DNA from: Phyllosticta citribraziliensis
Taxonomy: Eukaryota
Assembly (NCBI RefSeq): GCF_038025025.1
Contig: NW_027117339.1
Location: forward strand, 496,001 to 560,000
Direction of reading: 5' to 3'
DNA: 64,000 nt
Under the pieces are notes generated by a model, which was not told the DNA's origin, searched no databases, and saw only the letters and a list, made by a program, of their open reading frames with translations. Of this stretch, positions 7,821-57,078 are shown one piece after another (within the stretch, counting starts at the first letter, position 1; each line of letters starts with the position of its first letter). The translations under genes and the position numbers were made by a program.

Positions 7821-8808
7821 TCAGCTAATAAAACACAAGCAGCCGAGACTGACGTAGAAGACGAAGAGCGGGTACACAGCTATTCCCACGCGGTTTCGCA
7901 CCACGCCAGAGCCTCCAAGAATACTGATGCCGGCTGCCAGCGACCATACCACTAGAACAATGTAGACTGGTATGCGAATGATGACGGGCGCGTGGAAAGC
8001 GCTCAAAATGGAGGCGATGACGAGCGGGAAGAGCGTGTAGCCGATGATGCAGACGGACTGCAAGAAGGAGCTAGAGAAGGTCAGAAGTGCCGCTGGCTAG
8101 AGAGTTTGTGTACGCACATGCTGCCACCCAGGAGCTTGATCTGCAAAGTCACGGCAGCCTCTCCTAACCAGACCATGGCGAAAACACCAGAGAACACCAG
8201 GGACTTTTGTTCGTCGCGGGCGGGCCGAGAGAGGAAGAAGCTGAGCAGGAGACAAAAGACCAAGGGGCCCCAAAGGTCCCAGTCGCGGAGACCCTCACTC
8301 AAACTGCCGTGCAGCACAGCGTCGGCATCTGGCCAGCGCCCCAAGACGTTTCGCACACCGTTGGCTGGTGCACCGGCCTCCCCTCGCTCTTCAACCCCCA
8401 TGCCGCTGCCTTGTTGCAACATGCCGCCCAAGAGGTACTTGGGCCACAGAACCTGCTTCATCTTGTCCCATACTGCAACCAAGTCTCTCGACAGCGTCTG
8501 CCATACTGATTCGTCGATGGTGTTGGTAGGAGCGCGGCGGTCTTCGCCAGGGATGCTGGAGGTGAGGTAGGATTGCGTGTTTTGGCTGGATTGGGATTGG
8601 ATATTGCCAGTCAGAGGAGCGCGGTCAGATGTGGATTGGATAGGGTCGTCGAGATCGTCGAGAGTGGCTGTAGAGCAATTGAGCTAGCTTTCGACCATGT
8701 TTCCGGATGCGGATACCCACCATCGTCAGGGTCTATCATGTGGTCGCGCTCGACAGCATCATTGTCGAAGTTGTCGTAAGGGTTAGCTGAGGCGTGAGGA
8801 GCCGCCAT
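7821..8808 (-). CDS. Yip1-family Golgi membrane protein (Yip4/YIPF6-like), spliced
   Basis: LRDWDLWGPLVFCLLLS, VTLQIKLLGG and QSVCIIGYTLFPL motifs across ORFs 8611-8808, 8081-8482 and 7821-8063. Confidence 0.88.
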
Positions 8809-31483: not shown

Positions 31484-33064
31484 ATGTCGAGAACTCACGA
31501 TATTCGAGCTAGCATGAGTGTCCAGCGGATTATCACTGACGACCAAGCGATGTACTTTGCTCAACACCAGGCCATCGGAAAAGCCCCTGAGCGGCAACAG
31601 AGCACTCCACACGCAACCCCTGGCCGCGAAGATTCTCGTCAAGCAAGCTCGCTTCAAGCAGCTCAAGCACTCCTCTCCCTGTCCCAAAGCCCGCAGATTG
31701 AGGATGAGGTTCCTGAGGTGAGCGCCGCCACGGATGTCCTTGCACCAGGTCGTCCATCGCCAATCGACCGACGTCCCGTGGCCTCCCCATCGACAGATCA
31801 TGTCCGTGCGCAGGGTCGTTCACTTCTCTTTGACCTACCTGTTGCAAACTTTCCATCGCCCATCGACCAAGGTCCTGTAGCCTCGCCATCGACAGATCAT
31901 GTCCGTGCGCAAGGCCATTCACCTCTTGTCGACCTACCTCCTGCAAACTTTCCATCGACACGCCATGCCCCTGTGCAAGCACGCTCATCTTCCATCGACT
32001 TGCCGACCACCCGCTTTACATCGATGAACCACAGGCCTGCGCAAGCGCGCTCGTTCTCCACCAACCTACGGACCACGGGCTTTACATCGACAAACCACGG
32101 CTTAGTGCAAGCACGCTCACAGTCTACTGGCCTACCACGCATGAATCAGCCATCGACCGACGATGCCCATGTGCTAGGCAGCTCCAATGGGCTTCCTGTC
32201 ATCAGGCCTAACCGGATGCCCGTTGGCAGAGGAAATGGCAGAGCCAGACCAACAGGCATCAGCAAGCGAAAGCCCCCGGTCAAGAAGCCAAAGCCGGATC
32301 CCATGGACTACATTACCGCCGGCACACCTCAAACTCGCGAATTCGAATGCACCTACGGCAACCCCTGCATGCTCGGCCAGTACACACTCAACCTGTCGCG
32401 CAAGATGGTGTCGGACTACTTCGGGCGCAACAAGAAGGCGACGGCCATGATCGAGGGCAAGTGGATCATGTCGTGCCGCAAGCACTACCAGCGCCTGTCG
32501 TATCAAGAGAGCTGGCCGTTCACCAAGGCCGACATCGTGCAATCTCAGCTCTTCGAGATTGACCAAATCGAGCCCAACATGACGTGGGAGATCAAGCTCA
32601 AGAACAGCGAGGAGAAGCGCCTCACGGATTACCTCCACGATTGCTCCCAGAACGGCTCTGCCCCTGTCTGGACCTCGCCCGTCGCCACATTCATTCCCGA
32701 CGGCACCAACGGGAAGAAGCAATCGTCGCTTGCCGTGCTGCATTCGCTCCACAGCTTCTGCGGAAAGTCCAAGACTACCCAGGATTGCAGAGACATCATC
32801 GCGGCGGCCACGGCGGCGCTCCACTCGGGCAAAGCCGTCCAGTTTCCCCTCTTTGAAATGATTCCGCAGTTCACGAGCCTGGCCAAGAGGAAGAGGTCCG
32901 CTTCTTCTGCGTCTGGAAACGAGAACGAGGGCACGGGCAGGCCTCACAAGAGGTCCAGGTCGTCGGACGAGGAGGACGACTTTGTGGAGGCGGATGGCCA
33001 CGAGGATGACAGCGAGGATGAGGACTTTGTCATGGAGGATGTGGAGAGCGAGTCGGAGGCTTGA
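31484..33064 (+). CDS. Uncharacterised ascomycete protein with a conserved Cys/His domain (family usually annotated 'ORP1-like'), internal tandem repeats and acidic tail
   Basis: CTYGNPC...RKMVSDYFGRNKKAT...WIMSCRKHYQR; NLS-like KRKR; D/E-rich tail. First ATG at 31484. Confidence 0.7.
   Translation: MSRTHDIRASMSVQRIITDDQAMYFAQHQAIGKAPERQQSTPHATPGREDSRQASSLQAAQALLSLSQSPQIEDEVPEVSAATDVLAPGRPSPIDRRPVASPSTDHVRAQGRSLLFDLPVANFPSPIDQGPVASPSTDHVRAQGHSPLVDLPPANFPSTRHAPVQARSSSIDLPTTRFTSMNHRPAQARSFSTNLRTTGFTSTNHGLVQARSQSTGLPRMNQPSTDDAHVLGSSNGLPVIRPNRMPVGRGNGRARPTGISKRKPPVKKPKPDPMDYITAGTPQTREFECTYGNPCMLGQYTLNLSRKMVSDYFGRNKKATAMIEGKWIMSCRKHYQRLSYQESWPFTKADIVQSQLFEIDQIEPNMTWEIKLKNSEEKRLTDYLHDCSQNGSAPVWTSPVATFIPDGTNGKKQSSLAVLHSLHSFCGKSKTTQDCRDIIAAATAALHSGKAVQFPLFEMIPQFTSLAKRKRSASSASGNENEGTGRPHKRSRSSDEEDDFVEADGHEDDSEDEDFVMEDVESESEA
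31754..32160 (+). repeat. Coding tandem repeat: 2 x 99 bp followed by about 3 degenerate ~66-bp units
   Basis: PSPIDRRPVASPSTDHVRAQGRSLLFDLPVANF / PSPIDQGPVASPSTDHVRAQGHSPLVDLPPANF, then H.PVQARS.S..L.T..FTS.N units. Confidence 0.85.
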
Positions 33065-34518: not shown

Positions 34519-34789
34519 GTATGCAGCGTGAAAGCGGAAGTGAAGGCGGGCGGCGGGGCGCGGCGGCTGGCAAAGTCATTCGGTGCTGGGTGGGTGGGTG
34601 GTCAAAAAATGCTGGTTGCGGTGTTGAGGCGTTGGCGCAACTGCGTGGTTTGCAGGGCATGAGGTCGTTTGTCGCCCTTGCCGATTCTTTTTTTGCAAAA
34701 AAATAAGGAAGTCCGTGGGTTGGGTGGTGGTGCTCGCGCCCGGACTCGACCACGCGCTCAAATAATTATTGAGTTGGGAGGTTCGGCAC

Positions 34790-34923
34790 AAAAAAAGATA
34801 TCATTAAGATATTAGTGGGTTGTTCGAGCCTCTTAGAACCTAACCTCTGTTCCCATAGACCAGTGGATGTGCAATTGGTCGGGTCCGATAACGTCCTCGG
34901 TCGGGTTCCAGGTCGAAGATTAG
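34790..34923 (-). ncRNA. Structured small RNA family 1, copy 1 (TATA / T7 / downstream B-box-like motif)
   Basis: 102-nt core (34822-34923) matches 36752-36853 at 98 of 102 positions; terminal stem and four-way junction; T7 run at 34790-34796. Confidence 0.65.
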
Positions 34924-34938
34924 GATGAACTTTTGGCC

Positions 34939-34945
34939 TTATATA
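34939..34945 (-). promoter_or_regulatory. TATA box (TATATAA) of family 1 copy 1
   Basis: Begins 25 nt before ATCTTCGACC; same spacing in copy 2 although the spacer sequence differs. Confidence 0.65.
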
Positions 34946-36715
34946 TTGACTGTTCTTCGTACTTTTTCACAAGAGGAGGCATGAAACGTTTCATACCGCC
35001 GACACTCGCCCAATGGCCCGCACGGCATCACAAAGCAACAAGACTGTCGCAGCCATTTCTTCGTGCTGCTGTGGATCAAACCGCTTGAGGTCTTTCGTGA
35101 AAATGACAACCCGCACCAACACCCCAGATAATCAAGATTTGCAGGATCGTGTCTCTGAGCCTACGCGTCTGCAGTGGAGTCTGGGTAATTTAATTCGTCA
35201 AGGAGCACATTCTCTGCAAGTACTTTTCCTTGCCCGGCCCTCTATGGGCGCGACACCTGCAAAACAGCCTTCCCATCCCTTATCTTCCATTTCCATAATA
35301 TTAGGTGCCAACAAAGATCAGCCTCTGGCGCGCGAATCGATGCCTGATTAAAATTCTGAATGTCCTTTGAAAAGACTTTGAGCAGCGTGCACTCTGCTAC
35401 TGTAACTCCTGTAGTCAATCACTGCTCTGTTGGGTCCATTTGGAATTGAGGACCCGCTTTTACACCCCCTGTAGAGAAACGTAGGTAGTAAAGGCCAGTA
35501 CGTGCCGTGGACGCCTATCTGTATATATGGGCGGCGTCCGCACTGAAGGAAGACAACCCGTGGACTCATCTCTCAGTTTCCTTAGTATCTGGGCCCAACA
35601 ACACTCGCTAAGATACACCAGGGCCATAGGCGCTTGCAGCTTCCAAGGTTGCTCTGTTTGGAGCAAGGCGCATATCTCTGTCGTGCGAGACCTTTCTGAG
35701 CAGCTGTTTTGCAGTCCGTGTACGTGGAGCAGTCAGGCACAAGTACTCTCGTTTGCTTTGTCCCACCATAGATGATCCTGCACCCATTTTCGGCTGTACC
35801 TGCGACCGTCATAGGCGTGAATCTCCCGCCAAATGTTTGTCTCGAGAGCTTCGCCGCTCGACATGGCGAAGTGACGCGTCATTGCCGCCTGCAAGTGTCT
35901 TGCGGAGAAGGCAGTCCGGGCGAGGAGACGCCATGCAAAATCGGCCCCTCAGCCATAGTTTGAATCGTTCCTCGCAGGGCTGCCAACTTCCTTCCGAAAT
36001 TTGAGGTTCTTGTGCGCAGCCTCCAACTTCGCGCGGCTGTCATGCGATGCCGCCTTCGCGCCATACCGCCCATGCTGATAAGTAGACCTGGCCATTATGA
36101 TGTGAGTGAGGTATGAATGCTCCATCCATCTTCTCCACAAACACAATTCTTTACGTGATGCTGGGCGTCGTTGTGGGGGAAGTCTAGAGTGGCGGCGGCG
36201 ACAGCAGTATCAGTGGCGTGGTTGACGGCGGTGATGGCTCGACGGGGGACTCATTGTGAGCCTTGAATGACTGGAAAAATTGGGCGACTTTTATTTGTGA
36301 GGGTGAGAGCGAGAGATGGTTCGAGGGAGAGTTGTTTGCGCAGTGGAGGTCAACATGGTTGAGGTGAATGGTCAAGGTGCGCGAGCACTAACAAAATGCC
36401 GGCATTCTAAGATATCGTAAGCAGTGAATGACAAGATAATGTCAGTAAGAGGAGAGAGGGTGTTAAAATAGAGGCTGGGGTGTCAAAAAAGGTCGCCGCC
36501 GTACTAAGCGCAAGAATGAAATCAGCGTTGCTTTGCTGGGCATGAGTGCAATGACACCGCCCGGCAAAGTTCTTACAACCTGACATGGCGCCGCCGCCGA
36601 CATTGCCAAGCAAAAGTTTGTTGCGGGCGCGACGTTTCTTTTTTGCAAAAGTGATTGTTGCCAACACTGGGACTCGACCGCGAGCTCAAAGGATTACTGA
36701 GTTGGGAAGTTCGGC

Positions 36716-36853
36716 AAAAAAATATCCTTAAGATAAGGATTGTATAAGTGGGTTCGAGCCTCTTGGAACCTAACCTCTGTTCCCATAGACCAGTGGGCGT
36801 GCAATTGGTCGGGCCCGATAACGTCCTCGGTCGGGTTCCAGGTCGAAGATTAG
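36716..36853 (-). ncRNA. Structured small RNA family 1, copy 2
   Basis: Core 36752-36853; T7 run 36716-36722; GGTCGAGTCC B-box-like motif at 36670-36679. Confidence 0.65.
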
Positions 36854-36868
36854 ATCAAAGTTTCCACA

Positions 36869-36875
36869 TTATATA
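36869..36875 (-). promoter_or_regulatory. TATA box (TATATAA) of family 1 copy 2
   Basis: Same 25-nt spacing to the core as in copy 1. Confidence 0.65.
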
Positions 36876-37374
36876 TTGCCATTTTTCCTTGACCCGGACA
36901 CTGCAAGCCGCGCTCTACTGCCCCAGCCACTTTCTAAACATGAGGACATTATGAGTTGGTTGACCTACTCACCCTAACACGTGTACAGCCAGCTTCTGGA
37001 AAAGGCGGCCCCTGGGCCCCCGACATCCAATATTTACCTTGCTTGTCTTACCTGTGGCCGGATTCAGCATTGTTAGAAGAGCAATCATGTTGAAGATGCG
37101 CTTTCGCAACAAGGGAGTGCATTCCAAGACTTTGATGATGGTGGGAGTACCAGATGACATGAATGCTCCCAATGCGCCCACAACACCACACCACACGCAC
37201 AACGAACGAACGAACGCACCACAACGGCAACCCCCACAGTCCATGTTCAAAGGCGAAGGAAATGCCCCAGCGGAAAGTAGACAATAGAGTCGCTTGAGGG
37301 AGCAGACCCTAATAGGCTTGCTGTGCCGGTCCTTTTTTCACGAATACTGAACCACTTGAGTGACTTGATCTTAT

Positions 37375-37641
37375 TGACGAAGTAAGATGAGAGAACTGAA
37401 GACTCTATTTGAGGCTACTCTGAGAGCTATCTATATACTGCTGAAACTGCCAGGGGGAGTAGTAGCTGGTACTAACTGCTGATGAGTCCTGAACTTGTTG
37501 AGATATATAAAGCTAATAGATAAGTGTATCTTGACTAAAGTAGTAAGTTGTTGTCTGGATAAGCTGTAGTTATCTAGGTGAACTGTAGCTAAGATGATGC
37601 GATGGGAGACTGCTTAGTATTATTATATAGGACTACTAATA
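37375..37641. repeat. LTR (3' LTR of the minus-strand element)
   Basis: Direct repeat of 42297-42563; differences seen are transitions. Confidence 0.95.
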
Positions 37642-42296: not shown

Positions 42297-42563
42297 TAAT
42301 AAAGTAAGATGAGAGAACTGAAGACTCTATTTAAGGCTACTTTAAGAGCTATCTATATACTGCTAAAACTGCTAGGGGGAGTAGTAGCTGGTGCTAACTG
42401 CTAATGAGTCCTAAACTTGTTAAGATGTGTGAAGCTGATAGATAAGTATATCTTGACTGAAGTAGTGAGTTGTTGTCTGGATAAGCTGTAGTTGTCTAGG
42501 CGAACTGTAGCTGAGATGATGCGATAGGAGACTGCTTGGTGTTGTTATATAGGACTACTAACA
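42297..42563. repeat. LTR (5' LTR of the minus-strand element)
   Basis: Direct repeat of 37375-37641; adjacent to the PBS. Confidence 0.95.
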
Positions 42564-43568
42564 CTTATGGCTTAAACGCTCTCACCCAAGGCACACCCGT
42601 CTATGGATAGCATCATGGAGTACGGCGGATGAGGTGGGAAATGTTGAAAAAATCAGAAAGACCACCACACCAAGAAGTGAGTACAATGTTTCCAATTTGG
42701 CAGTCGACATTGGCGGAAGCCGAAGCGCCCAGACAATTTGAGGTGAGGATACATTCTGAGCCTGGCAAGGCAAATGCATCAGCGAGATTCTGGCCAGCCC
42801 GCAAGGCTTCTAAAAAGTGCTTGAATGGAGTGTCCGCCGTGATTGCGGGCAGGCCTTCAATTCCAGGGCTCCATTGCAATATGCCCCAATGAGCACCTTC
42901 ACACGGCAGCCCTGCAGTTGCTCACTCTTTGGCACCGCTGATTCCAGGATATTCAAAATGACGTGTCAGATGCTCAGGATGGCCGGAAAAGTGCTCAAGA
43001 CTGCATGCACCTCTTGGGACGCGGTTCGAAAGAAGACAAGTCTTGCCAGCCAGTCTTGGCCATTGGTCCCCTTCTGACGGTGCATCGTGCAGGAGGATCC
43101 CATGGAGACGGAGGCGTATTCGAGAAATAATAGCAGCGCGGCGAAACCTTGCCCCGAAGGCGCTCGGCGACGAAGTGCGCGCTCCTTCCTTCCCTCTGCA
43201 CCTCAAGCGACTCTCTGCACCGGAAGCGAGCGCCCGTTGGTCGGCTGTGAATAGAGCGCCCGACGCTGCCCTCGGCGACTCTGCGTACGCCTGCGACAAC
43301 ACCTTCGCCCGCCTCCGCCCGTCGCAACTGGCCCGCCGAGTTGAATCCTTTTCAACGACAAGCCTCTTTACTTGCCAAACACACGCTACCCTGATTGAGG
43401 AGTAATTCATGTCCCCCGCCTTGAGCAAACAACGTGACAGGCCGCTGATTCCAACAACGCAGAGACACAACAGGACATCCGAACTTTTCTGGCTGCGCTA
43501 CCCTCTCCGTTGTCACGTTGGCGCGAGAAGTGCCAGAACACCTCGTGCTGCCCACCGCACCAAGCAAA

Positions 43569-45161
43569 ATGGCCCCAACGCCGTCCGCAAAGGCGTCAGA
43601 GTCAAGCACATCCATCAGAAATGCCAGCGGAGCGCCCGAATGCTCCAAAACCTCAACCTTGAGCATCAGCCAGCAAAAGTCACGTCTACTCAAGGTGGTG
43701 AGAAAGTGGCTTGGGCCTGTGGACGAATGGATGCCCCGCTCAGTCGATGTTCCAACCTGTCTCGAGGACTGGTCTTTGTCTCTCCTTCAAGTTCTCTCGC
43801 ACACATGCCGGAACCTGAAAACTCCAGAAGCATGCAGACACTTTGGCCTCCTCTTGCAACGTAGCATGGAAGATACAAACAGAAATCAGCTTGAGGAATC
43901 AGACGTCCGCAAGATTGCACGAAGACTTAAGGAAAGACACTCTTTCGTCAACGCTATCAGGGCGATTTGGGGAACTGATTCGTCCGTTTGGTTGGGCCGT
44001 GAATTCGAATTTCAAGCCAGAGACCCCATGACTTGGCCGACGGACGTTCTCGAGGTGCTCCTCAATCTTGCTCGTCAAGCGCCCACCCCCGGACGGCACC
44101 TCAGAGCCAAACGCATCGTGTACAGAATTGCGGCGACAGACATGGATATGTTGCAAGAGGAGGGATGGAACTTTCTGCCGCTTCATGTCCACCACGTGGA
44201 GCTATCCTGTCAGAGCTTTGAAAAGCTATGGCCTGCCAGCACGAACACCAACCTTGTCGGCACGTTGCGTCACAGGGCAGCCAATTCAGCTCCGGATTCT
44301 ATTGAAGATTTTGGCGCATACGACCAGCTTTCTCCAGAGGATCAAGCAAGTGCTGATCATGCCGTTCTTGCTGCCTATCAGAATGCACTGAACAGAAGGG
44401 GCGCGGGCTACGGCAGTTCTCGGCACGGCCCAACGATTTGCACTTGCGAGTTTGCGGAGACTCCGGGTCTTGGGCGATATACACCCAACAAAGGAAAGCT
44501 CTGGAAGGGCCCGGATGTTGATGGACAAAAGCGAAGCTATGGCAAGGTCTCGCGGAAGCAATCCTACATGAGAATCCTAGAATCGCACTATCGCTGTACG
44601 TTTGCTGAATTCCTCGACATCCCAAGACTCCGCCCCGAGGAGGCTTTCTACTTTGCCGAAGACACCTTGAAGGCCCTGGTCCAGCTCAAGGACGAGTTTC
44701 TCGATCTTCCGCTGGAGACGGTCAGGGAAGCCCTGGAAAAGCAAAACGAGATGGCAAACAATGAGAAAACTTCGAAAAACAAAAGCACCTTCCACAATAT
44801 CACGAGGAGAGTCGTCACCGATACTCGAGCAGTCCTTCGAGCTGAAGCCGAAAGTAAGGCGCCAGAAGCCGCGACTGAGGACCCTACGCACACCGAAGAG
44901 CATGCTCACGCCGGAGAGCATGTTGAAGTCACCGTGGAGCCTGCTGCCACCGAGACTGCTGCCAGGGAGGCTGTTGCTACCGAGTCTGCCGCCACCGAGG
45001 CTGCTGCTGCTGAGGTTACCAAGGCTGCTGAGGCGGCCGTCGAGGTTGCCCAGGACAACTTCGACGACCCTGACAGCTCCCAGTCATCCCTGTTTAACGA
45101 CAGGCCCCGGAAGAGAAAGAGGGTCGACAGTGTGATGAAAATTCAAGAGACGACCGCCTGA
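43569..45161 (+). CDS. Orphan protein A: three W/P helical repeat modules, Ala/Glu-rich tail, NLS-like RPRKRKR
   Basis: Intronless 530-aa ORF from the first ATG; internal repeats; paralogous to 52551-54359. Confidence 0.8.
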   Translation: MAPTPSAKASESSTSIRNASGAPECSKTSTLSISQQKSRLLKVVRKWLGPVDEWMPRSVDVPTCLEDWSLSLLQVLSHTCRNLKTPEACRHFGLLLQRSMEDTNRNQLEESDVRKIARRLKERHSFVNAIRAIWGTDSSVWLGREFEFQARDPMTWPTDVLEVLLNLARQAPTPGRHLRAKRIVYRIAATDMDMLQEEGWNFLPLHVHHVELSCQSFEKLWPASTNTNLVGTLRHRAANSAPDSIEDFGAYDQLSPEDQASADHAVLAAYQNALNRRGAGYGSSRHGPTICTCEFAETPGLGRYTPNKGKLWKGPDVDGQKRSYGKVSRKQSYMRILESHYRCTFAEFLDIPRLRPEEAFYFAEDTLKALVQLKDEFLDLPLETVREALEKQNEMANNEKTSKNKSTFHNITRRVVTDTRAVLRAEAESKAPEAATEDPTHTEEHAHAGEHVEVTVEPAATETAAREAVATESAATEAAAAEVTKAAEAAVEVAQDNFDDPDSSQSSLFNDRPRKRKRVDSVMKIQETTA

Positions 45162-46918
45162 GCTTGGGGAGCGTTCGTGGTGTGATTGCATGGGTTGGGA
45201 GATTTCGTGGAGCTGCGACCAGGGCACGTTCGACATGTGTCGCAAAGGTCGGAAAAGGTGGTGGAGCTGAGCTCGGAGAACGTCAAAAATGTGGTTCGAT
45301 TGGATGAGCGGGTTGAACGAGGTGGAGAGTGGACAAAGCCCGACATGTGGTACGATTCGTCGACTGGGTTGGAAGGAGTGGTCCTGGATCGCGAGGACAG
45401 AGACTTGTAAATCTCTTGTGTTTTGGCTCGCAAGGATGAAGATCATGGGAGGGAAGGAAAAAAACGGGCGTAGATGCCAGGTCCTCGACGGAAAAAGACT
45501 CTGGTAGCTAGAAAGAAGCATACAAGACTTGGTGCTCCTCAAAGATGGCTGCAGGTACGGAACGAGAAGCATCCAAAATCTACTGACAAGAAAAACTCTG
45601 GTTGTAGTCCCGACACACTTACCCCCGGCGACAAATCTGTCTGCTTCTCCCACGCGTCAGGCGGTTGACGCTCCACGGTGTCGAAGCAGCAGCGGCGCTG
45701 CTACCCTACTGCCAACGGCAATCCCCAACCACTGCACACGACTGCCGATCATCTTCCGAAGCCTCAATTCCTTCATCCGATCGTTCTGAAAGAAAGGTCG
45801 AGCGAATTCCGCGCCAGCACAACACCGACCGTCGTCTTTTCACCTTTGTTCTCCTCCAAAAGCGCGCAAGCAGCCCGTCAAAAGACACAGCAGCCCACGT
45901 ATTTCGACAAACAAATGTCCAGCAACCTCCAGAACAATGACAAAGAAAGAGAACAATGCTCAGCCCAAACTGCCGCGGTTTGCGCTCGAAAGCGAAAGGT
46001 TTCGCAGCGAGTGAGGTGCAAATTGAGTTGTCGCCCCGCCCGCCGATCGCGACGGTAAGCCTGATGCAGAAAGGTGGGCCGGCGGACCCGCCAATGATTC
46101 GCGTGGCTCGGGTGAGCTAGCCGCGAGCGGTAATATCGTGGGCAGGGGTGCGACTACCTGCAACACCAAGCTGACGAGATGGTGTACTGCGCGTGGTTTG
46201 GGAGGAGCGTGATGGTTGAGAGAGCGAGAAGCGGAAAACACCATTATTGGGCAGGGTGGGAGTGCAAAAAGCGCAACATTTGGAGGACGAAAGGTAGAAG
46301 CGTACAAAGCGACATGCAGGACGACGGCGGTCAAAACCTTGACGCTGACATTCATTGCATTAGGCTGGAGACGCCATTTTCACTGCATTTCGCCTTTTGA
46401 AAGATGCCGCGGAATCTCCCCTGGGTCGGCCAGCACGGCGAATACGAACTTTTGCTGCAGCTCGCTCTGGCTGTTGATGTCGCGTGGGAAACACTCGTCG
46501 CAAGACTGAAACAATTTTATCGCGCGACAGAACGCATGCAAGGGAGCCAAATGAGTTTTCCAAGTTCAAATCATGGTCGCGGCGATGCATAGTGTTTTTC
46601 TGGCCACCGCTGTCGTCACCAGCGCAGCTACGCAGCCTATGGCTTTTGGCTTTCATTGGCTGGGGCACTGTTGCGAAAATGGGGGCGATGGAGGTAAGAA
46701 AGCCTCTTACCTTGTTATTAATGTGGCGAAACGAAGCATCCGAACTGCCTGGCGAGAATGTAATTTGCGGTTGCTGAAGTCGTGACGCTGCTTTGTCGCC
46801 TTTGTCGAACAACATCGCGGGCGACAGTACACAAACCGAGTGACGGGAGTGGCCTTCAGTCTCATGAGGCAAAAAAAGTAAAGTCGACGAATCTGGGGAA
46901 AGGAAAAAATACGGAGAC

Positions 46919-47095
46919 AAAAGAATTGGTGCCTGCACACCTTGCTGTGCTAAACGAGGGGTAGATATATTGCAGTATCCCAGACTCGAACCTTCAAACT
47001 ACGGCCTACACGTCGGCATCTCACGCCAGGCGCAGATATTCAGTTCTTGATAATATGTGCAGCAACCCACCTGACGCATACGCCTTGGGTGCAAT
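46919..47095 (-). ncRNA. tRNA-like Pol III RNA family 2, copy A
   Basis: B box GGTTCGAG at 46985-46992; D-arm-like hairpin; conserved 3' block at 46927-46952; T runs downstream. Confidence 0.65.
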
Positions 47096-47379
47096 TCGAG
47101 TGTTTCATGGGGTTCTGCCCGTTGATTATGTTTTTAATACTTTCTGGTCACGACGCCGTCGCCGGATGTTGCAATGTAACCTTCTTACCACAACAACACA
47201 CGAGTGGAGACTCCATCACTGCCATCAATTGACTTGGACTTTCTTTGTCAATTGACAGCACAATTCAGTAAAAAGTGTTCGCCGACGGGTGTCAGAGGAA
47301 GTGGGCCAAATGGCAAACATTTCAGCGACTGGAATGTCGGGTGAATGAGGAGCAGGCGCAATACTAAGAATTCAAAGGG

Positions 47380-47545
47380 AAAATGATACCTACACACCAT
47401 GCTGTGCTAGAACGAGGCTACCGCCATCGCCACCGGCAAAGCTCGAACCGTAAACCCACTGCCTATATGCAGCCTATATGCCAGTATCAAACACTAGGCG
47501 CAGAAATAAGTTCTTGATAACGCGTCAAGCAACCCACCTGACATG
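47380..47545 (-). ncRNA. tRNA-like Pol III RNA family 2, copy B (5' end diverged)
   Basis: B box at 47442-47449; 3' block at 47384-47409; compensatory GATAC/GTATC pairing; short internal tandem duplication of GCCTATATGC. Confidence 0.6.
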
Positions 47546-49735
47546 AACTCGTTTTGGTCTTCGGGATTTTCACTACCGAATCATGACCGCCTGCCTCGCT
47601 GATTCAACACTCGCAATGTGGGCTTTTTGGACAGTGGTCCGGAATTCGGTGAAATTGCTCAGACCCCGGCGCCTGCGCCTATCCCAACTAGTGATCCTCT
47701 ATCCAATCGCCTTATGCATCCCATTTTTCGTTCGCTTTTCACGCCGCTTGCCCGCTTTCCCGGATTGCTGACTGCAATCCCCAACATCATCTCTCGCATT
47801 CAGACGTGTGCAAGAGCTTGATCTCGAATTAATCCAGCACTGCACCAGAGAGCCGCTAGCCCCAAGGACGAAAGGCAGAAATAATCGACTATAAGGGAAG
47901 AAAAGGTCTTTACTAACTCCGAGACTCTCCGCCGGTCGCGCACCCGGTCGCGCCGCCATGCATCAGACGTGATGAACAGAGAGAAAGAATTCCGAGAAGC
48001 CGAAATTGAGTATACGAGCAGCGGATGGATGTGTCAACAAAGGTGAGTCGAACGCCGGCCCAGTTGCTGGACTGAACTTAGCGATTGGAAGCGACTCAGG
48101 GACCGACCCAAACACCGATCAGTCATTCTCACATCCCTGTTTGCTCGGTACATCCTTCGGAATGTTTTTCAGTCACCTGCTCGTCGCGCTGTGCTGAGAA
48201 TGCTTCTCATCCCGCGGCCTTCGGCGTTTCGTGCTCAGATCAATGTCCAACAGGCAAAATCCACGCAGAAAGATAGACTCCAAGACGCGGTAGTTTGGAC
48301 ATGCTGACAGATGATTCAAGCCAGACACGCTGTGCAAGTGGCCGGAGAACCTACTGAACAATGCATTGAGCGAGCTTTGGACAACGCGCCGAACAGGACG
48401 TGACGGAAGATGTCCGAAAGAGAAGTGCGAGCCAGAAATTCGGCCGTGATATCTGTTGGCGACGTAGACGCTTGTACATTTGCGTTTGTGTCTGCTTTCG
48501 ATTCTTCAAAGGGTGAAAAATGTCTCCAAAATCGCTGCTGAGAGCCTTCGAGCCGGCCCTCACGCAAAATCTTAGCAAGCCGATCAGCAGGCTTCTCTAG
48601 GCCAAAGGGGACCTTTGACTCCAAGATAAACCAGAGACACTCTGATCTTGCTGTAAATTGAAAGAAAGAATCAAAAGTCAGCGCGGCCATCAATGATGAA
48701 GAGTCTCGCAAACTCTAGGGCGCGCGAGCGGGCAGTTTCGGGTAGCGCCTGTCACCACCAAGAGTTGAATCGATTCGGTGATTCTCATGCTCATAGAATG
48801 GCTCAGGCCTTCCCAAGTCCGGAGTGGGTGCCCAAAATAATTGAAAATTGCGATGTGCAGGCGGTGGTTGGGGTCGTCACGTATTTTTAATCTCTCCGCC
48901 GGCGGTACCACCACGTATTAAACAAAGCAAAAAGAGTGACTACGATTCCAAGACCTGCAGGATGAGCGACTGAGCGGTCAATCTATCTGTTGGCTCATTG
49001 CGTGTATTTTGTCGCGCGTTCCGGCACTTTGTGCTCAGATCATCGCCCAACGAGCGAAATTCTACGGGGAGAGAAGGACTCAACGGCAACGCGGTTTGTT
49101 CAAGGTGCTGGAAGACACTGTGAGCAAGACGCAGTGGGCGAAATGTGGCAAGACATGCTGGGCAAGCGGCAAACAGACTTACCGGACGACGCGCTGAACG
49201 ACATCTTTGAGAAAGCGATGAGCAAAACGTGCTGGACGAAGAGTTGGTGGTACGTAATGGAGTGTCAGTAGCCTAGCTGCACTACCTGCTCGCTCGGATG
49301 TCTGCACAGTTACCAGTCACGATCGTGTCTGCGGGAGTGGTCGAAGGTAATCGCAAACATCAGCGTTGAGCGCTGTCGAGGCAAACATCCACCTCCAGTT
49401 CAGAAAACTGAGCAGGAGGCTTCTCCAACGTAGGCGGGACCTCTAAAGTAAAGAAAAATCAGAAGGCACCTGATCTGGCCAGCGATGAGGAAGATGAGAG
49501 AACAATCTGGGCAGCAAACAGAGATGACGAATCTGGAAGACTATGAGGCCCTCAAGCGGGCCAATGTATTTCGGGCGGTCCTTGTTTGCTTGTCACCTTC
49601 TTGAGCTGAGTCAAGCAGATGTTTCGCTAATCCACAGTGGGTTTGGAGTGCTGAGTGTAACTATCTGATGGGCTTTGTGGTTCGGAAGAAAAGATGCGCA
49701 GCGATGATCGCAACGGCGGCAGGAAATCAGCGGAC

Positions 49736-49921
49736 AAAAAAGTAAAAGGTGATGCCTACACACCATGCTGTGCTAGACAGGAACAGTTTATTGCAGCAAA
49801 CCAGACTCGAACCTTCAACCTGCTTATAACGACCTATACGTCAGCATCTTACGCTAGGCGCAGGTTGAGTTCTTGAAAATGTGTCAATTAACCCACTTGA
49901 CACATACGCCATGGGCGCAAT
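49736..49921 (-). ncRNA. tRNA-like Pol III RNA family 2, copy C
   Basis: A box TGGCGTATGTG; B box at 49806-49813; 3' block at 49750-49775; T4 and T6 terminators. Confidence 0.7.
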
Positions 49922-51152
49922 TTGGATTATGGTTAGAAATTCAGCTGCTTAATTCAATTATGGAGTAGAAATTCGGCAAAGTGGCCTTGGCGACGGCGGT
50001 CTCCATCGCCGGTCTGGCCAGAAGATTTACGCTCGCGAATTTGCATGATCTGGGTAAGTAGACTCATTATTTTCATCTAATCCACTGCCCTAGCATGGCG
50101 GTGCGCCATCTAGAGCTTTGCATGGCGGCCTCAAATCTGGCCCGCGATGCGAAGCGTCTGTGAAACACCGCATTTGCTCAATGAGTCGTCCTGAATATCT
50201 CTCAACCATTTGATTCCCGTCTCTTGATCTACGTGTTTGTCTTGCCGCGTCTCTGGACGCTTCGAGCATAGGTCGTCGACCAACGAGCGAGAGCGACTGG
50301 GGGATTCACTCGACTATGCGAAGAGCTTGCCGTGCTCTGAGAAGTAGTGGGCAAGACGTAGTGAGTGAGATGCGGCAAAATGAGGCCAAAGCTACCAAGA
50401 AATGCTTTCAGCAACGCGTTTAACGCCACGTTGGACGCCGCACTGAGCAAGGTGTGCTGGACGAGAGCCTGATGGAGGACACCTGTACGCGGCTCGCTTC
50501 CAGTGTTGGTGACGTCAGTGGTGGCTGCCAGGGTCTAGGTATGCCCGTGAGAAGTAGTTTTGACGCGTCTTTGCGCTCGTCCTCTCCCACACTACACAAC
50601 GATCACGGTTTTTTATCTTCCTCAGAGCTTGACAGAAAAGGAAGAGTCTGTGATATGGGTGCACTTTCTGCTGACTTGGATTTATTTCAGTTACTTGCGC
50701 ATCTGCTTGAGTGGCTGAAAGCCATTTTCAACGTTGCTGTTGGGCGCTGCGGTCGAGTAAGCCCCTCCCGCAAAGGTTCAGCGATTTGATCAGCATAAAA
50801 TTTGCTCCAAAATTAGCGCAACCTCCAAACCCAAGATTCGTCCAAGAACAGCCCAATTTGCAAGTAGTAAGGAAGAACTTGAGAAAATTGAAGCCGCGAG
50901 GAAATGAGCCATTGAACAAACGTCAGGGCGCTCGGGAGGGTGAATGTTTTCCAGGCGCTGCTTGTCGCCACCAAGAGAAATTCCAGGCAGGTTTTTCGCT
51001 AGATCACAGGCTGCATTTGTCGCGCCTGGTGGTGACAGATTCGAGCGGCAAAACGAAGACCAAAGATGATCAAAGCTGAGGGGTGGTGATTAGAATAAAA
51101 AGTAGATAGGGCTGGGCAAGCCTCATTAGTAAAACACAAAATTCAAAGACTC

Positions 51153-51347
51153 AAAAAAGACAAAAGTGATGCCTCCACACCATGCTGTGCTATACGGGGA
51201 GTAAGAGTCCATTGCTGCCTACGAAGCTCGAACCGGGAACCTGCTTATAATAGAGGCCTATATGCCGACATCAAGCACTAGGCGCAGATACTGAGTCCTT
51301 GATAATGCGTCAAGCAACCCGCCCGACACATACGCTAAGGGAGCAAC
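51153..51347 (-). ncRNA. tRNA-like Pol III RNA family 2, copy D
   Basis: A box TAGCGTATGTG; B box at 51227-51234; 3' block at 51167-51192; T4 and T6 terminators. Confidence 0.7.
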
Positions 51348-52550
51348 TGTCATTACTTCAGCGCTCGCTCAAATAGCACATAACTTGAAGCAAATGCGCC
51401 TGGGCCAAGCGCAGAGAGATGAATTACCGCCAATACCTGTACTCCTCCCCGATGATTGACAAGTCATAAGAGCAGACGAGAAGTCGGAACACGAAGCCGC
51501 ATTATTTCTCCACATCAATCCGTGTCAACTTCCATGACCTTACAGCTTCTTCTTTCGTTACCTAAAAGTAAAGTACTTTGAAGAATCTTAAATTCTACTC
51601 TACTACGCCAGCCCTCGGAAAAGGTTGCATCATGCGATGTAGAGCAAACGGACCTGGCAGCTTCAACCTGTAATTTGGTCTCATGAGATGCAGTATTTTT
51701 AGCGTTTCCTCTAGATTTGGAGCCCTTGATTGAGCTGTGGTGCTGTAAACTATGTTCATCTCCCCATCAAGACGAGCGCCTCGCGGCCCTTGCCACTCGC
51801 ATTGATTCACGTTGGAAACCCAAAAGCCGAAGGATATTCTGAACGCCCTGTTCTGCCCATGCGTAGATCCAAACTTTCGAAATTCGAATTTTGGATGGAC
51901 ACGACGTTCAAGTTGGAAGTGTTAATTTTGACAATGGCACCGAGCGCCCGATGGCCTCAATATCTCTAGTCATACGCGCAACCGTTGAGTAGAGGGTGCC
52001 CAATCGCAGTGCTGATCTGCCTTATTTTCATCTGCCTTAGACCAGAGACTGCGAAACGTAGATATGATCGCATCGTCCGACTCCCTCTGACGACGGTCCT
52101 TCCAACCACAACACTCCTTCCGACCACAATACTCCCTCTACCGCCGACACACCTTTTGCCGCCAAATCACCCTCGATTACGATTTGACGAAAATTCCTTC
52201 TGCGTCGCGACTCTACCCTCCACCGTGTCGTCTCCAGAGCTTTGCGCGGTCTTGCCTGGTCGTCCCGTCAACACCACCTCTCGCTACTTTCCTTCGACGT
52301 GCAGCACTTTCACTCGACCCGCCTCAACTTCTCTAAGTCGTGTTCTATTTCCCTTGCCGGCGCAACACCCACCCTGCGTCAAGACTTCGGCGAGGTTTCT
52401 TCGCCCAATCCTCCTTCATACGACTTTACTTGTTGTCGACGTTTCGCGCCCGCCGGTTTGCGCTCTGACGGATCTACGCACCAGCAACCGCCGCCGCTCG
52501 GCCCTTTACATGTTGATGAGCCTTGGTCAGCCATCAACCTCGGCAGTCTC

Positions 52551-54359
52551 ATGAGAATGTCGCGAAAACAAATTCAAAAGCGTGTGGAGGCCCAGATTGT
52601 CAATCATGAGCATGATGGCTTGAGTCAGAAAGAGATATCTAGACTCATTGAAGATATCAGCTCGCACTGGGGTGATGACTACCAGCATTGGCTTCCACAG
52701 CTTGGCCGACCGCAGGGACGCCCAGAAGTGTGGACATACGGAATAATTGTCGAGTTAGCTCTTATTGCGCCACTCATGCCCGGCGACGACCGTAGGTCTG
52801 CCGCCGCAGCTGCAATCGGACAATCCCGAACCCAGAGATTGGCGAACGCGAACACCACAACAACCGCCGACATCGACATTACTCCAAGAGATACCTGTGA
52901 GGTCAGAGTCAAGGCTCAGCTCATATCGTCAATCACCGAATTCTGGCCTTGCGAATTCTCTCAGTGGTTGCCCAGCGGCGTAACGAACTGCGCTAGCGCT
53001 TTCGACCTCACCATCAGCATACTTTGCGGAATTGCGCTCATGGCACAATCTAGCTCGGTGGGCTCCGTCGACCGCATGCAGGAAGCCAAGGCTATCATAG
53101 CTGCAAAGATCCAGCGGCGGCCGCGATCTAGAAGATGTCTCAACGCCCAGACAGTTTTCGAGGCCCTGGATGAAGGAAAGAGGGCTTGGCTCAACATTCC
53201 GTACCTGAACACTCGCTTTTACAACAAGCTGACTTACATGAGGACGTCTACGGAAAAGCAAGTTCAGCGGGCGCTCAACAATGCTGCTCGAGAATTGGGT
53301 TCGGGACACGGCACACCCGAGTATGGCGTCACAATCTTGCAACAGGATCAGGCCCGCACGGGTGCCTTGATGACAGCCGCCTATGGTGCGTATTGGCGCA
53401 TTGCACCCAGCAGTTCTTCGATGGTTCCTCAGTGGACCGATGAGAAGACAGCGGCCAACGTGGAGGTGATTGCCCAGCTCGAAAGTATCTTCAGTCAGCC
53501 ACTTGCCGTCATCCTGAAGGCACCAAAGCTTGGCACCAGCGAGGCTCTGGCGATACCGACCGAATTGCTCACGAAGATCGTGACCCTGAGCCGACAATTC
53601 GCATTGAGTCTCGCCAGACTGCACAACCTTTTGGATGCGAAGTGGCAAGAAAAGCATTTGAAGAGATACGAGGCCATGGACAACGAATTCCCTAGCCTCA
53701 AATGTTCCGATGTTGAAGAGATCATCCAAGAGACCTTGAAGCCCAACCCTTCACCACTCCTAGCAGCGGACGAGCCTCCCGAAGATTTGTTCGAGAAAAC
53801 AGAGAAGGCTCAAGAAGCTGTTCCTATGGAAAGTGCCTTGGAGGTGGGCGAGGAGGCTATTGAGCGCGAAAATGGAGCGGTTCAAGCAGAGAAGCTCGAA
53901 GATCGACCGCACAAGCGCCTGCGGTTGAGCAACAACAGTTGGAGCCAGACTTTGGGACACGAAGGTCCAGCCGGCGACGGATCTGCTGACAACGAAGTCG
54001 ACGAGAACGCCGCAGGCCTAGACGGTGGCTCCGAGGTCACGCTGAAGGGAGACGCATCGCCGAGGGAGATCGTTAAAGAAAGAGAGGAGGAGCCGACTCA
54101 GGCGATTACAGATACCCCCAAGTCCCAGGGCGCAAGCCTCCAAGTCGTCAGGTCACCTGGAGAGTTCGATGGAGAAGAGCGCAACTTGGAGATCCAGCCG
54201 CCCCAGATGGACAACTTCGACCTCACAATCGCCAAGGAGTTGCAGCGCCAGCTCAACTACGTAGAGAAGCTGGTGCTTGAGACCAGGAAGACACTCCGGC
54301 AGTACGAGCAACGGCGCGAAGACCTCGAGCGCCAGTTGAAGCAACACGAGCAAAAGTAG
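52551..54359 (+). CDS. Orphan protein B: three W/P helical repeat modules, acidic region with NLS-like RPHKRLR, C-terminal coiled coil
   Basis: Intronless 602-aa ORF from the first ATG (frame open back to 52242); paralogous to 43569-45161. Confidence 0.8.
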   Translation: MRMSRKQIQKRVEAQIVNHEHDGLSQKEISRLIEDISSHWGDDYQHWLPQLGRPQGRPEVWTYGIIVELALIAPLMPGDDRRSAAAAAIGQSRTQRLANANTTTTADIDITPRDTCEVRVKAQLISSITEFWPCEFSQWLPSGVTNCASAFDLTISILCGIALMAQSSSVGSVDRMQEAKAIIAAKIQRRPRSRRCLNAQTVFEALDEGKRAWLNIPYLNTRFYNKLTYMRTSTEKQVQRALNNAARELGSGHGTPEYGVTILQQDQARTGALMTAAYGAYWRIAPSSSSMVPQWTDEKTAANVEVIAQLESIFSQPLAVILKAPKLGTSEALAIPTELLTKIVTLSRQFALSLARLHNLLDAKWQEKHLKRYEAMDNEFPSLKCSDVEEIIQETLKPNPSPLLAADEPPEDLFEKTEKAQEAVPMESALEVGEEAIERENGAVQAEKLEDRPHKRLRLSNNSWSQTLGHEGPAGDGSADNEVDENAAGLDGGSEVTLKGDASPREIVKEREEEPTQAITDTPKSQGASLQVVRSPGEFDGEERNLEIQPPQMDNFDLTIAKELQRQLNYVEKLVLETRKTLRQYEQRREDLERQLKQHEQK

Positions 54360-57078
54360 GTACCCCGGTCGACGAATTCGCGCACGCAGCCCAAGAGCAA
54401 GCATCTCGCTGCCTCCAGGACCTTCTCTTCCATCTACGAGAAGCCATCCTGTAATACGTTCTTTGTACGCATACCAAGACTCTTCTCTTTCCACCTTCCA
54501 CTCTCCACTCTTGCAGGCCCCGGATAGTTTGTACGCACACCTACACTCTTCTCTTTCTCTTCTCCACTCTTCCCGGCAGAAACCCTGCTTGTTTTGTCTT
54601 GCTTTGAGAGATCATTGGACGAGGAATTGGGAAACACCGTCGGCGTAATAGTTGGGATTTTGCTTTGTGCGATAGATACCCATTCCGAATTGCGAAATCT
54701 GTTTCTTTGTAAAGCGCGTCCTTTTGGAACATTCAAGCGGCGCCACGAGCGCAAGAGGGCGCCATCCGGTACTTGCTGGAGGTGTCTTGAAGGTTCTGGT
54801 GCTTCGCGTTACTTAGAGTTGTTCGATGAGATCCTTTGACCTTCTTTGATGTGCTCTAGATAGGCGAGAGTTGGTCTTCTGGGAGGTAAGAAAAACAGCT
54901 GATGGCGGTGCACGTGCATCTTACAGCCAGGAAAAACGACAGAGGGGCTGGCTAGGCCGAGAAAGATCCAAAAATCCCTTCCGATGACAGGAGGGAAAGA
55001 TGAGAACATCGGATGGTCGGTGTCTGAACGAAGAAGGTTGCAGTAATTGGTGGCACCTGGGCTTAATGCCATGCAAGGCTCTTTGAAAACAGCGCAACAA
55101 AACAATGCAGAAGCAAAACTCTGCCCATTCGGACCCGGCGCTGATGGCGGATGGCTGCGCAAAAACGACGTATTGCCGCAAAATGATAGCGACACGGCAG
55201 ACAGAGGCCAAGCGAAGCCATCAAAAGCAATCGGTTTCCCAGAAAAGCGAGATGAGCCATGCGGAAAGACTTTCGAGGACGAGTGGCGAACTGGCTGCAG
55301 CGCATGTAAGCCGCAATCCTCGACTCTTGCCATCCTCAGAGAAACACTGACCCAGCGCTACATGGTATGCCATCAATACAGCCGTCCGCGCACATTGCGA
55401 CATGGAAGGCGAAGTTGAAGTAACACCAGGTTGCGGAAAAAAGGCCTCGAGGAAAAGCGCTTCTGTCACAGTCGCAGTGGTCGTGCTTGCTTCCTGCGAA
55501 AGAGACCTCGGAGTTGAAAAGGACACTGCGGCGAGCTGAAGAGCTTGCCAGTCCTGGTCAGGTAACAAGATGAAGCACAGCCTGAAAGACTTCTTTGCAC
55601 AGAGTTGAGGCAGCTGACATAACCCGCTTGCTTGACGGCGTGCCAGCCGAAGCAGTGTCCATTAGTAGAAAACAAGAAGCACCGCCCGACGACGGGGCAT
55701 GGACGTGCCCTCCGCAGCTTTGCTGCTCCGCTACTCCAAAGATAGCGACAGCCAACAGGGTCCAGAAGATTCCAGGCCGGAATAATGCAACAGAAGCACA
55801 CAAAGGGCGACGGTGCTGCAGGGCAAGCGGGAAACTTGCAGTAGACCGGGCAAAGGATTCCAGTCGCCTTTGGAGTAAGTTCTGTGACAATCCTTTGGCT
55901 TTCCCATCGTCTTCCAGAAGCCGTCCGGGTGTTTGGCGACGAGAAGGTCAGGAGCTTCGACGTCCATAGCAGCTGGAAGACCTGCGAAATGATACAAAGC
56001 GAAGTCGTGATACTGTCTTTTCGGCACCTCCCGAATCGTAGCAGAGTGCGAGATGTTCGAGTGCGAGAGTGAATCGGTGTATCGACAGGCTTCTACCACA
56101 CAGAGAAGGCAGCGGAATTGCCAAGACTTTGTCGGGCTTAAACGACTACCGATTTCCAGCCGATTTCGGACAGAAGAGGACGGGAAGATGGTACCGGTAT
56201 TCCAGCGTTTTTTTTCTGAAGTCGTCAGGCTGCTCAGCCTGTCTTGTCGGTCTGACGAGGGTCAGCGATTCAATCAACGACATGTGCACTTGTGTCGATG
56301 ATGAATCAAACCTTTCAATCTGCCATTTTGGATTAAGACGGCAACTTGTTCCGTGAGTCGACGAGCTGGACACAGTCGCAGGGAGCGTTCTTGCGGATGT
56401 TAATCCACAAGAACATCCAGCGGAACCTCTTTCCACGACCTGAATCATCGTACGGCGACTTGGCGCAGCGCAGGAGTTTGGTTATCCCACGTTTTTGACG
56501 TTTGTAGAACGTGAGTTGGCTAGCCAGCAGATCGATTCTGACCGCAGATCTCGCTCTGAAGCGTGAGAGGAGCGACTGGCCGCGGTCGGCAAGGACAAGG
56601 TACTGCCTTCCACGGTAATTGACGAGGCGGAATCCCTCCTCAGAAGACATAGCGACGGGTTTGAGCTCAAGGCAGCCAAAGACCGCTGACACAGGGACTC
56701 CTCTTTTGCAGGCTGACCTGATGTACGTGGCCGGTGACGCCAACGAACCCCTGCTCGTGCTAGACCCCCACCGAGACATTGGCAGAAGACGTGCGGGAGG
56801 TTGTCACACAGGGGGCGGACTTTGGCGCAAAAAGCATGTTCAACCTTGGACTTCCAGAATTGGCAAGCTGAGTATGTGGAAGACGGAGGTTCGAGAGAGC
56901 GCGCTGTAGAACAAGAGGTGAATCGATTCCACAATTGAAAAACATGAAGCTCACAAGGCGATAACATGTCTAGACTGCAGCCGACCAAGCAACGCTGACC
57001 ACTGAAAATGGTACGAGAGGCAAGCACGTCAAGTTTTGCAGTCACTGTGACGGACTTGGAGTACGAGAAAGCAGCTCG

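Follow-up and report, generated by a model that had tools for sequence, protein, structure and literature searches.

What kind of element has persisted as four diverged, tRNA-like copies in one short stretch of the genome of the fungus Phyllosticta citribraziliensis? The copies lie in a 64-kilobase (kb) window of contig NW_027117339.1 (the whole stretch of DNA analysed, 64,000 nucleotides (nt) long; positions are counted from its first letter), all on one strand and all within a single 4.4 kb array. The reading that we favour, with about even confidence, takes them for a resident, non-mobile, transfer RNA (tRNA)-derived family of RNA polymerase III (Pol III) RNA genes under purifying selection. 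Judged by their sequence, three of the copies, denoted A, C and D, look intact, and the family would consist of paralogous units of about 185-195 nt that no longer encode a tRNA. Three other explanations of the array, namely a decaying retroposon, ordinary tRNA pseudogenes and a cluster of protein-binding sites in the DNA, are weighed below together with the evidence that bears on them.

Four copies of a tRNA-like unit

An initial annotation, made by a model from the letters of the sequence, had placed four copies on the minus strand, each composed of a series of conserved blocks. The copies were recovered where they had been placed, with all the listed blocks present. Runs of four and six thymines are denoted T4 and T6, and E values are those of a profile built from the four copies.

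51153..51347, minus strand: copy A, 5'-intact, E 6.2e-57; in order, GTTGCTCCC, TAGCGTATGTG, the D-arm-like hairpin, TCAAGGACT, the CTGCGCCTAG hairpin, GGTTCGAG, GCAAT and a 26-nt block with one mismatch; T4 at 51165-51162, T6 at 51158-51153
49736..49924, minus strand: copy C, 5'-intact, E 2.7e-53; exact 26-nt block; T4 at 49747-49744, T6 at 49741-49736
47380..47545, minus strand: copy B, 5'-truncated; T4 only (47383-47380)
46904..47097, minus strand: copy D, 5'-intact, E 4.5e-52; 26-nt block with three mismatches; T4 at 46922-46919, T6 at 46909-46904

In the alignment, the pairwise identity of the four copies is 64-78%. The profile matched only these four in the 64-kb window (E 6e-57 to 4.5e-52, 171-187 bits), and its next-best matches had E values of 5.8 and 9.6. 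The 26-nt block near the 3' end occurs four times in the window at three or fewer mismatches (0, 1, 1 and 3), against an expected count of 0 in 100 shuffles, and no further match to it was found in the 64-kb window, including the degraded retrotransposon described below.

The element annotated as an invariant B box, GGTTCGAG, is indeed exact in all four copies, as is TCAAGRACT (described as TCAAG(A/G)ACT), which has six matches in the window compared to 1.18 expected; CTGCGCCTAG has one mismatch in D and none in the other three copies. The putative A box, TRGCGTATGTG, had been reported as perfect in C and D, which holds for C (49901-49911) and fails for D (two mismatches), and the motif is also perfect in A (51327-51337). 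It is absent from B, and by itself is found at chance level, with 21 matches in the window at up to two mismatches compared to 21.15 expected. The D-arm-like hairpin closes in GAC as described, except in D, where the 3' arm is damaged and reads GCAC. The reported lack of the 5' TTGC.CCC in copy B reflects a larger loss: unrelated sequence stands in place of the first ~20 nt, comprising both TTGC.CCC and the TRGCGTATGTG motif. Copy B also lacks the T6 and an AT-rich stretch upstream, and is probably a disabled copy. Three further GGTTCGAG sites in the window, at 36318, 36751 and 56888, are set in unrelated sequence, and their kinship with the family was rejected.

Searches for tRNAs and catalogued RNA families

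ARAGORN found 0 tRNA genes in the window and, with introns allowed (-i) at the default threshold, made no call on any copy; the only default call in this mode, at 7879-8183, falls in apparent coding sequence. With loosened thresholds, 33-124 calls were made window-wide, and those on the copies, confined to A and D, were scattered and mutually contradictory. No match was obtained in Rfam at the gathering score, and in particular, the models of Y RNA, vault RNA, 7SL, ribonuclease (RNase) P/MRP, small nuclear RNAs (snRNAs) and small nucleolar RNAs (snoRNAs) produced none above threshold. When E values up to 10 were accepted, for 6 kb and for ~250-nt stretches around C and A, there was still no tRNA match and only three snoRNA matches appeared, all sub-threshold (11-19 bits versus gathering scores of 37-50), two of them in spacers and one on the strand opposite to copy C. 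These results agree with the earlier description of an unrecognised RNA without a canonical cloverleaf, for which a tRNA finder and Rfam had been expected to give either no match or one to a pseudo-tRNA. Reading of the alignment showed no five-base-pair (bp) T-stem around the 7-nt T-loop: in A and C, no more than 2-3 pairs, most of them G-U, can form between the five bases on each side of TTCGAG(Y), and in the consensus fold described below, GGUUC pairs with GAACU in place of the T-stem.

Several other identities were considered by reading and rejected. C/D and H/ACA snoRNAs and Sm-site snRNAs each account for one local feature and leave the conserved extent of the unit unexplained, and the same applies to a Dicer-type hairpin, to a plus-strand Helitron 3' end and to a primer-binding site in the 26-nt block. 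A protein-coding role of the unit or the spacers was rejected as well, the open reading frames (ORFs) being short and broken. Comparison of spacer with spacer by tblastn gave weak matches on both strands, with stops; an ATG within the 26-nt block opens frames of differing length or none (10 amino acids (aa) in A, the ATG itself missing in D); and no convincing ORF was found over the 5 kb from 46.9 to 51.9 kb.

The unit would appear to descend from a leucine (CAA) or another class II tRNA, given the YU-CAA-GR remnant, the D-arm and a likeness to a variable arm. Descent from tRNA-Leu(CAA) in particular is our assumption from resemblance, and copy C may, in the stretch that follows CTGCGCCTAG, resemble the variable arm of a yeast leucine tRNA. 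Such an origin raises the question whether the copies are simply a decayed tandem array of former class II, Leu-CAA-like tRNA genes, that is, plain neutral pseudogenes. The GTGGGTT in the loop of the D-arm-like hairpin, the YU-CAA-GR kept in all four copies, the T-loop-like GGTTCGAG and the acceptor-like pairing of the 5' and 3' ends would all fit. However, all four copies contain additional sequence, ~12 nt separating the acceptor-like strand from the D-arm and ~30 nt ahead of the T-loop, lack a T-stem and carry a conserved tail of 55-60 nt. Because all four share this non-tRNA architecture, it was present in their common ancestor and has been kept since. Moreover, the most conserved block, that of 26 nt, lies outside any tRNA part, and the units are conserved above their spacers, so that plain pseudogenes appear very unlikely.

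Pol III-type anatomy

The oligo-T end described earlier was found in every copy: the conserved body is followed at once by a T4 in all four, and a T6 comes 2-12 nt further in A, C and D. An A-box-like remnant of the D-arm, TGTCARGTGGG, is present in all four copies, and the A box is only partial; the assignment of this motif and of GGTTCGAG to the A and B boxes is one that we presume from the consensus motifs of these boxes. In each 5'-intact copy, a pyrimidine-purine step is located 2-3 nt ahead of TTGC, and an AT-rich stretch occupies positions -45 to -20:

51368..51393, minus strand: AT-rich stretch (AT fraction 0.65) ahead of copy A, candidate TATA-like upstream element
49944..49969, minus strand: AT-rich stretch (0.65) ahead of copy C
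47117..47142, minus strand: AT-rich stretch (0.69) ahead of copy D

The corresponding fraction for copy B is 0.54, and only 8.3% of the 26-mers of the local background reach 0.65. The invariant GGTTCGAG, the universal T4 and the upstream stretches of the three 5'-intact copies thus bear out the proposal of a Pol III-type anatomy, the internal boxes and the T-run terminator being as expected of a type 2 Pol III gene, and A, C and D each form what we predict to be a coherent Pol III-type transcription unit of ~185-195 nt.

Tandem array and apparent constraint on the units

The four copies belong to larger repeats of ~1.2-1.4 kb that together make up an old tandem array. Comparison of positions 45500-52500 with themselves yielded nine off-diagonal alignments, six of which match one RNA copy to another (69-77% identity), whereas the remaining three match spacer to spacer (66% over 95 nt, 59% over 211 nt and 62% over 135 nt) and are collinear with the RNA copies. 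The homologous spacer blocks are as follows.

50246..50464: spacer blocks in the A unit that run collinearly with positions 49013-49239 in the C unit (62% identity over 135 nt, with a repeat of 48 nt)
49013..49561: spacer blocks of the C unit, matching the A unit and a third unit without an RNA copy
48213..48733: spacer blocks of this third unit (X), matching the C unit (66% over 95 nt, 59% over 211 nt), with the RNA copy absent in front

On the minus strand, the order is thus copy A with its spacer, copy C with its spacer, spacer X without an RNA copy, copy B, and copy D some 280 nt beyond B. A decayed fifth copy was sought near 48900-49010, the position expected for the X unit, and was not accepted because the alignment is ambiguous.

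Repeat-induced point mutation (RIP) was rejected as the source of the divergence among copies and spacers: the dinucleotide indices of the array are normal (TpA/ApT 0.62, CpA index 1.34), and transitions and transversions in the spacers are roughly equal (15:16, 32:46 and 19:23). Given the absence of a RIP signature, in contrast to the block at 38-42 kb (see below), the divergence of the array appears ordinary and old.

Against this background of old divergence, the units stand out. They are 65-79% identical over aligned positions, compared to only 39-53% in the adjacent sequence (200 nt on the upstream side and 270 nt on the downstream side); unrelated 270-mers aligned in the same way average 46%, so the flanks are indistinguishable from background. 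The difference in identity between unit and flank is significant in all six pairs (Fisher p 5.8e-5 to 3e-19), and the homology boundaries are sharp at both ends of the unit. Invariant columns (84 of 167) are clustered (state changes, p=0.00035), as the block-wise conservation noted in the initial annotation implies; the best 26-column window contains 22 of them (p=0.004), and an unbroken series of invariant columns reaches 10 at most, a length without significance of its own (p=0.06). Because the spacers have drifted to near background and the units have not, we take the units to be under purifying selection as RNA genes, and their co-duplication with the decayed spacers makes the case for constraint stronger. 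Neither the contrast between unit and flank nor the clustering would be expected if a co-duplicated segment were decaying neutrally. The four copies form a real, non-random and apparently constrained family.

Copy number, relatives and a possible retroposon origin

Three sets of contigs from public sequencing runs, of which six were found and none is recorded as RNA, were aligned to positions 46500-51800. One run represents the same species (99% identity or more in 12 of its 13 records), and another a relative at roughly 90% likeness. In the former, the contig depth is 3.1-4.0 over the copies and 2.7-3.9 over spacers and flanks (13 records over 5.3 kb), that is, single-copy. In the relative, only 11 records matched at the locus, and therefore the unit is not a high-copy repeat there at 80% likeness or above. 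In the relative, a contig of 1.5 kb carries a further copy of the A/B type, the 5' end of which is intact and A-like. Copy number in the family is fluid.

Pattern scans for more distant homologs gave five loci in metagenomes, one plus one in genome contigs and none in viral sequences, in collections poor in fungal DNA. The genome-contig loci lie in a PAS-type coding region of a purple sulfur bacterium and in an actinobacterial metagenome-assembled genome. All seven loci were rejected as homologs: they match the letters of the pattern only, at 2.6-7.3 bits versus 171-187 for the true copies. Hence no homolog beyond the one close relative was found in these metagenome, genome-contig and viral scans, which, because the collections hold little fungal DNA, say nothing on the distribution of the family among fungi.

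The main rival of the favoured reading is that the copies are relics of a low-copy, tRNA-derived retroposon resembling a short interspersed nuclear element (SINE), now functionless and decaying, and that they stem from one segmentally duplicated insertion or from several local insertions. A tRNA-related head, an A/B-box-like promoter and the lack of a cloverleaf are what such a relic would have, and sharp homology boundaries at both unit ends, the truncation of B, the loss of one copy and the different copy number in the relative would also be in keeping with it. Furthermore, in their length of ~190 nt and their low copy number the copies agree with AfuSINE2 of Aspergillus fumigatus (PMC5063351). 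Because fungal tRNA-related SINE-like sequences can, according to the same source, be low-copy, lack a cloverleaf and have degraded duplications, a relic of this kind stays the main rival.

Yet, the earlier remark that target-site duplications and simple-repeat tails are missing holds up. The longest words shared between the 25 nt upstream and the 43 nt downstream are 6, 5, 5 and 0 nt, which is not beyond chance, shared words of at least 5 nt being present in 944 of 2000 random pairs (~47%), and old duplications may have decayed. The T4 and T6 runs stand directly behind the body, with no A-rich or simple-repeat tail. The four copies are confined to one single-strand array of 4.4 kb with collinear homologous spacers, no copy occurs elsewhere in the 64-kb window, and the run depth is single-copy. 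Finally, the unit is far better kept than its co-duplicated spacers, with clustered invariant columns, unlike the outcome of neutral decay. On this balance, we consider a SINE-like relic possible and rather doubtful. If the copies do prove to be such a relic, they would document the low-copy persistence of these elements in a genome where RIP destroys repeats.

Predicted fold and limits of the case for constraint

For the tRNA-derived RNA genes that we favour, RNAalifold predicted a consensus structure of 52 pairs from the four sequences. It consists of a closing stem in which TTGC.. pairs with ..GCAA, extended by CCC.GGC with GYYTGG; a hairpin of 9-11 bp formed from the D-arm region; a long hairpin (GAACU/GGUUC, CUGC/GCAG and GCCUAG../..CUAUAGGC); and a 3' tail in which part of the 26-nt block folds into a hairpin of 9 bp. 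In the consensus, 91.3% of cells are paired, compared to 25-43% when the partners are slid. The covariation score is 0.266 versus 0.207 in shuffles, a level reached by 3 of 500, and pairs changed on both sides number 6 versus 3.8±1.3 in shuffles. Copy C alone is somewhat below its shuffles in minimum free energy (z -1.64). Together, these results are no more than suggestive of a conserved RNA structure in the four copies.

Several observations weigh against a maintained family of structured RNAs. The consensus structure was derived from the same four sequences that were used for testing it; the six two-sided pair changes were reached by 50 of 500 shuffles; and alternative pairings can be found by reading, for example, GGCGU with GCGCC. 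The minimum free energies (z -1.64 for C, +1.05 for A, +0.35 for D and +0.73 for B) are no better than those of shuffles in three of the four copies. Accordingly, the earlier claim of selection on structure stands in part: some pair-preserving changes and the covariation (3 of 500) speak for it, whereas the single-copy folding energies do not. At the level of the array, B has lost its 5' end and its T6, and the copy expected in the third unit is missing. The relative has two versions of the locus with a single copy replacing the stretch from C to B and D. Their joints connect 46722 to 49720 and 46959 to 49803, the second within a unit, as would be expected of unequal recombination. In addition, a G-to-A change at 47445 (plus strand) in the A/B-type copy of the relative turns the C of the B-box core into T. 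Not every copy is therefore maintained, given the truncation of B, the fewer copies of the relative and the altered B-box core in one of them. Short-tract gene conversion could, moreover, mimic constraint.

Genomic surroundings

The G+C content of the window is 50-60%, apart from a block of 26% at 38-42 kb, from the end of which the array is ~4.4 kb away. This block carries a strong RIP signature (TpA/ApT 1.76, (CpA+TpG)/(ApC+GpT) 0.14) and is flanked by 260-nt direct repeats at 37380-37639 and 42302-42561 that are 91% identical; the entire segment 37380-42561 is most likely a RIP-degraded long terminal repeat retrotransposon. Between the AT-rich block and the array lies a gene-sized ORF of 547 aa (43518-45161) without a Pfam match, which includes GAGNCTGCTGCCACC-like 15-nt tandem repeats at 44937-45007.

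Boundaries in yeasts can be formed by tRNA genes (tDNAs) and by extra-TFIIIC sites. The selected object in the array might similarly be the DNA, a cluster of TFIIIC sites, tDNA-like or "extra TFIIIC"-like, that serves as a chromatin boundary or organiser near the degraded retrotransposon. Of the blocks, only the B-box core is exact in every copy, the 5'-truncated B included, and the 26% G+C block bracketed by direct repeats is within ~4.4 kb of the array. However, a B box alone would suffice for such a role, yet ~190 nt are kept, among them the 26-nt block; the terminators stand precisely where the body ends, some of the changes preserve pairing, and the gene-sized ORF 43518-45161 intervenes between the AT-rich block and the array. 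We give this possibility little credence.

On the other side of the array, an ORF of 705-723 aa without a Pfam match (52188-54359, plus strand) starts ~1 kb past copy A and is read from the strand opposite to it, so that the array occupies its upstream region. Just downstream of this ORF, at 54462-54570, are two 43-nt direct repeats, 66 nt apart and 81% identical. Farther away, tandem repeats of 66 and 99 nt (six copies, 65-85% identical) at 31753-32185 lie in a 529-aa ORF (31475-33064), again without a Pfam match. An element of ~250 nt is present in two direct copies on the plus strand (34650-35000 and 36580-36930), with a core of 127 nt at 90% identity (34822-34948 and 36752-36878); it carries GGGACTCGACC and GGTTCGAGCC motifs and is preceded by an oligo-T/oligo-A run. 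The element, whose sequence shows no relation to that of the tRNA-derived family, is probably the "family 1" of the initial annotation. Long ORFs of the window encode MRC1-like, galactose-1-phosphate uridylyltransferase and Na/H-exchanger domains, and in its overall character the window resembles DNA of a RIP-bearing filamentous ascomycete.

Proposed working

Every step of the working proposed here for a tRNA-derived Pol III gene family is drawn from sequence anatomy and general knowledge of Pol III. TFIIIC would bind the invariant B-box core GGTTCGAG together with the A-box-like D-arm remnant TGTCARGTGGG, and TFIIIB would occupy the AT-rich stretch at -45 to -20. Pol III would then start at the purine 2-3 nt ahead of TTGC and stop at the T4, or at the T6 a few bases on. 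The RNA is predicted to fold into an acceptor-like closing stem, a D-arm-derived hairpin of 9-11 bp, a long hairpin in which GGUUC would pair with the GAACU of the anticodon-loop remnant, and a 3' tail, the near-invariant 26-nt block of which would form a hairpin of 9 bp ahead of an oligo-U end. Such an end is the usual La site.

As far as the anatomy indicates, two options for the function appear most likely: the RNA may be small, stable and structured, or the tRNA-like part may act as a promoter and processing module by which the conserved 3' tail is delivered. In the second case, an RNase Z-type cut behind the closing stem would free the tail, by analogy with milR-4 of Neurospora. A stricter version of this analogy, which we consider unlikely, holds that the degenerate tRNA serves only as a Pol III promoter and a handle for RNase P and RNase Z and that the product is the 26-nt block as a small regulatory RNA. 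If true, the array would be a tandem tRNA-trailer or microRNA-like RNA (milRNA-like) gene family, a kind of locus not known to have been described in fungi. To our knowledge, few fungal Pol III transcripts outside yeast are known besides tRNAs, 5S RNA, U6 RNA, 7SL RNA and RNase P RNA.

Comparison with known systems

With intron-containing tRNA-Leu(CAA), the array units share a D-arm-like hairpin with a GG-containing loop, a YU-CAA-GR loop remnant, the T-loop-like GGTTCGAG, acceptor-like pairing of the 5' and 3' ends and the logic of an internal promoter. Unlike this tRNA, they have no T-stem, contain extra segments between the acceptor strand and the D-arm and before the T-loop, end in a conserved tail of 55-60 nt, and are called as tRNA neither by ARAGORN with introns allowed nor by Rfam.

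The snaR genes are tandemly arrayed and derived from a Pol III repeat. They resemble the present family in being a lineage-restricted family of Pol III small-RNA genes, in this case of African great apes and humans (PMC3045588). In contrast to the array units, which are tRNA-derived, fungal and described here from sequence, snaR is an Alu/7SL-derived animal family with known expression and a known protein partner.

According to PMC5063351, the AfuSINE2 sequences of A. fumigatus are 140-493 bp long, low-copy and endowed with degenerate A and B boxes, and none forms a cloverleaf. The array units have in common with these a tRNA-related 5' part, a degenerate A box next to a better-kept B box, the lack of a cloverleaf, a size within 140-493 bp, a low copy number and a fungal host. 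The units differ from AfuSINE2 in having neither target-site duplications nor a tRNA-unrelated, A/T-rich or trinucleotide tail, in forming one tandem array with co-duplicated spacers, in being conserved far above their flanks and in ending at Pol III terminators.

PMC3547838 reports that, in Neurospora crassa, Pol III transcribes milRNA precursors other than tRNAs, that milR-4 is linked to a tRNA and needs RNase Z, and that, at milR-1, a Pol III subunit bound less once a TATA-like element had been mutated; it also cites the tRNA-miRNA units of murine gammaherpesvirus 68. With milR-4 and the gammaherpesvirus units, the array would share a tRNA or tRNA-like part that serves as promoter and processing signal and a downstream piece that is the product, an arrangement proposed here. 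With the milR genes it has in common the context of a filamentous ascomycete and a TATA-like upstream element, shown for milR-1 and a candidate in the array. Real alanine tRNAs flank milR-4, which has a Dicer-type stem, whereas the array units have a tRNA-like part that is not a tRNA and a 3' hairpin of 9 bp.

In the open-access literature searched, we found no description of a comparable fungal tandem tRNA-derived family. By its sequence features, the family would belong with tRNA-derived Pol III elements, which are already known as a class. Within this class, a unit of tRNA origin that persists while the flanks duplicated with it have decayed would be an inexpensive, well-defined candidate for a new fungal small RNA, as well as a case from nature of a tRNA gene becoming something else.

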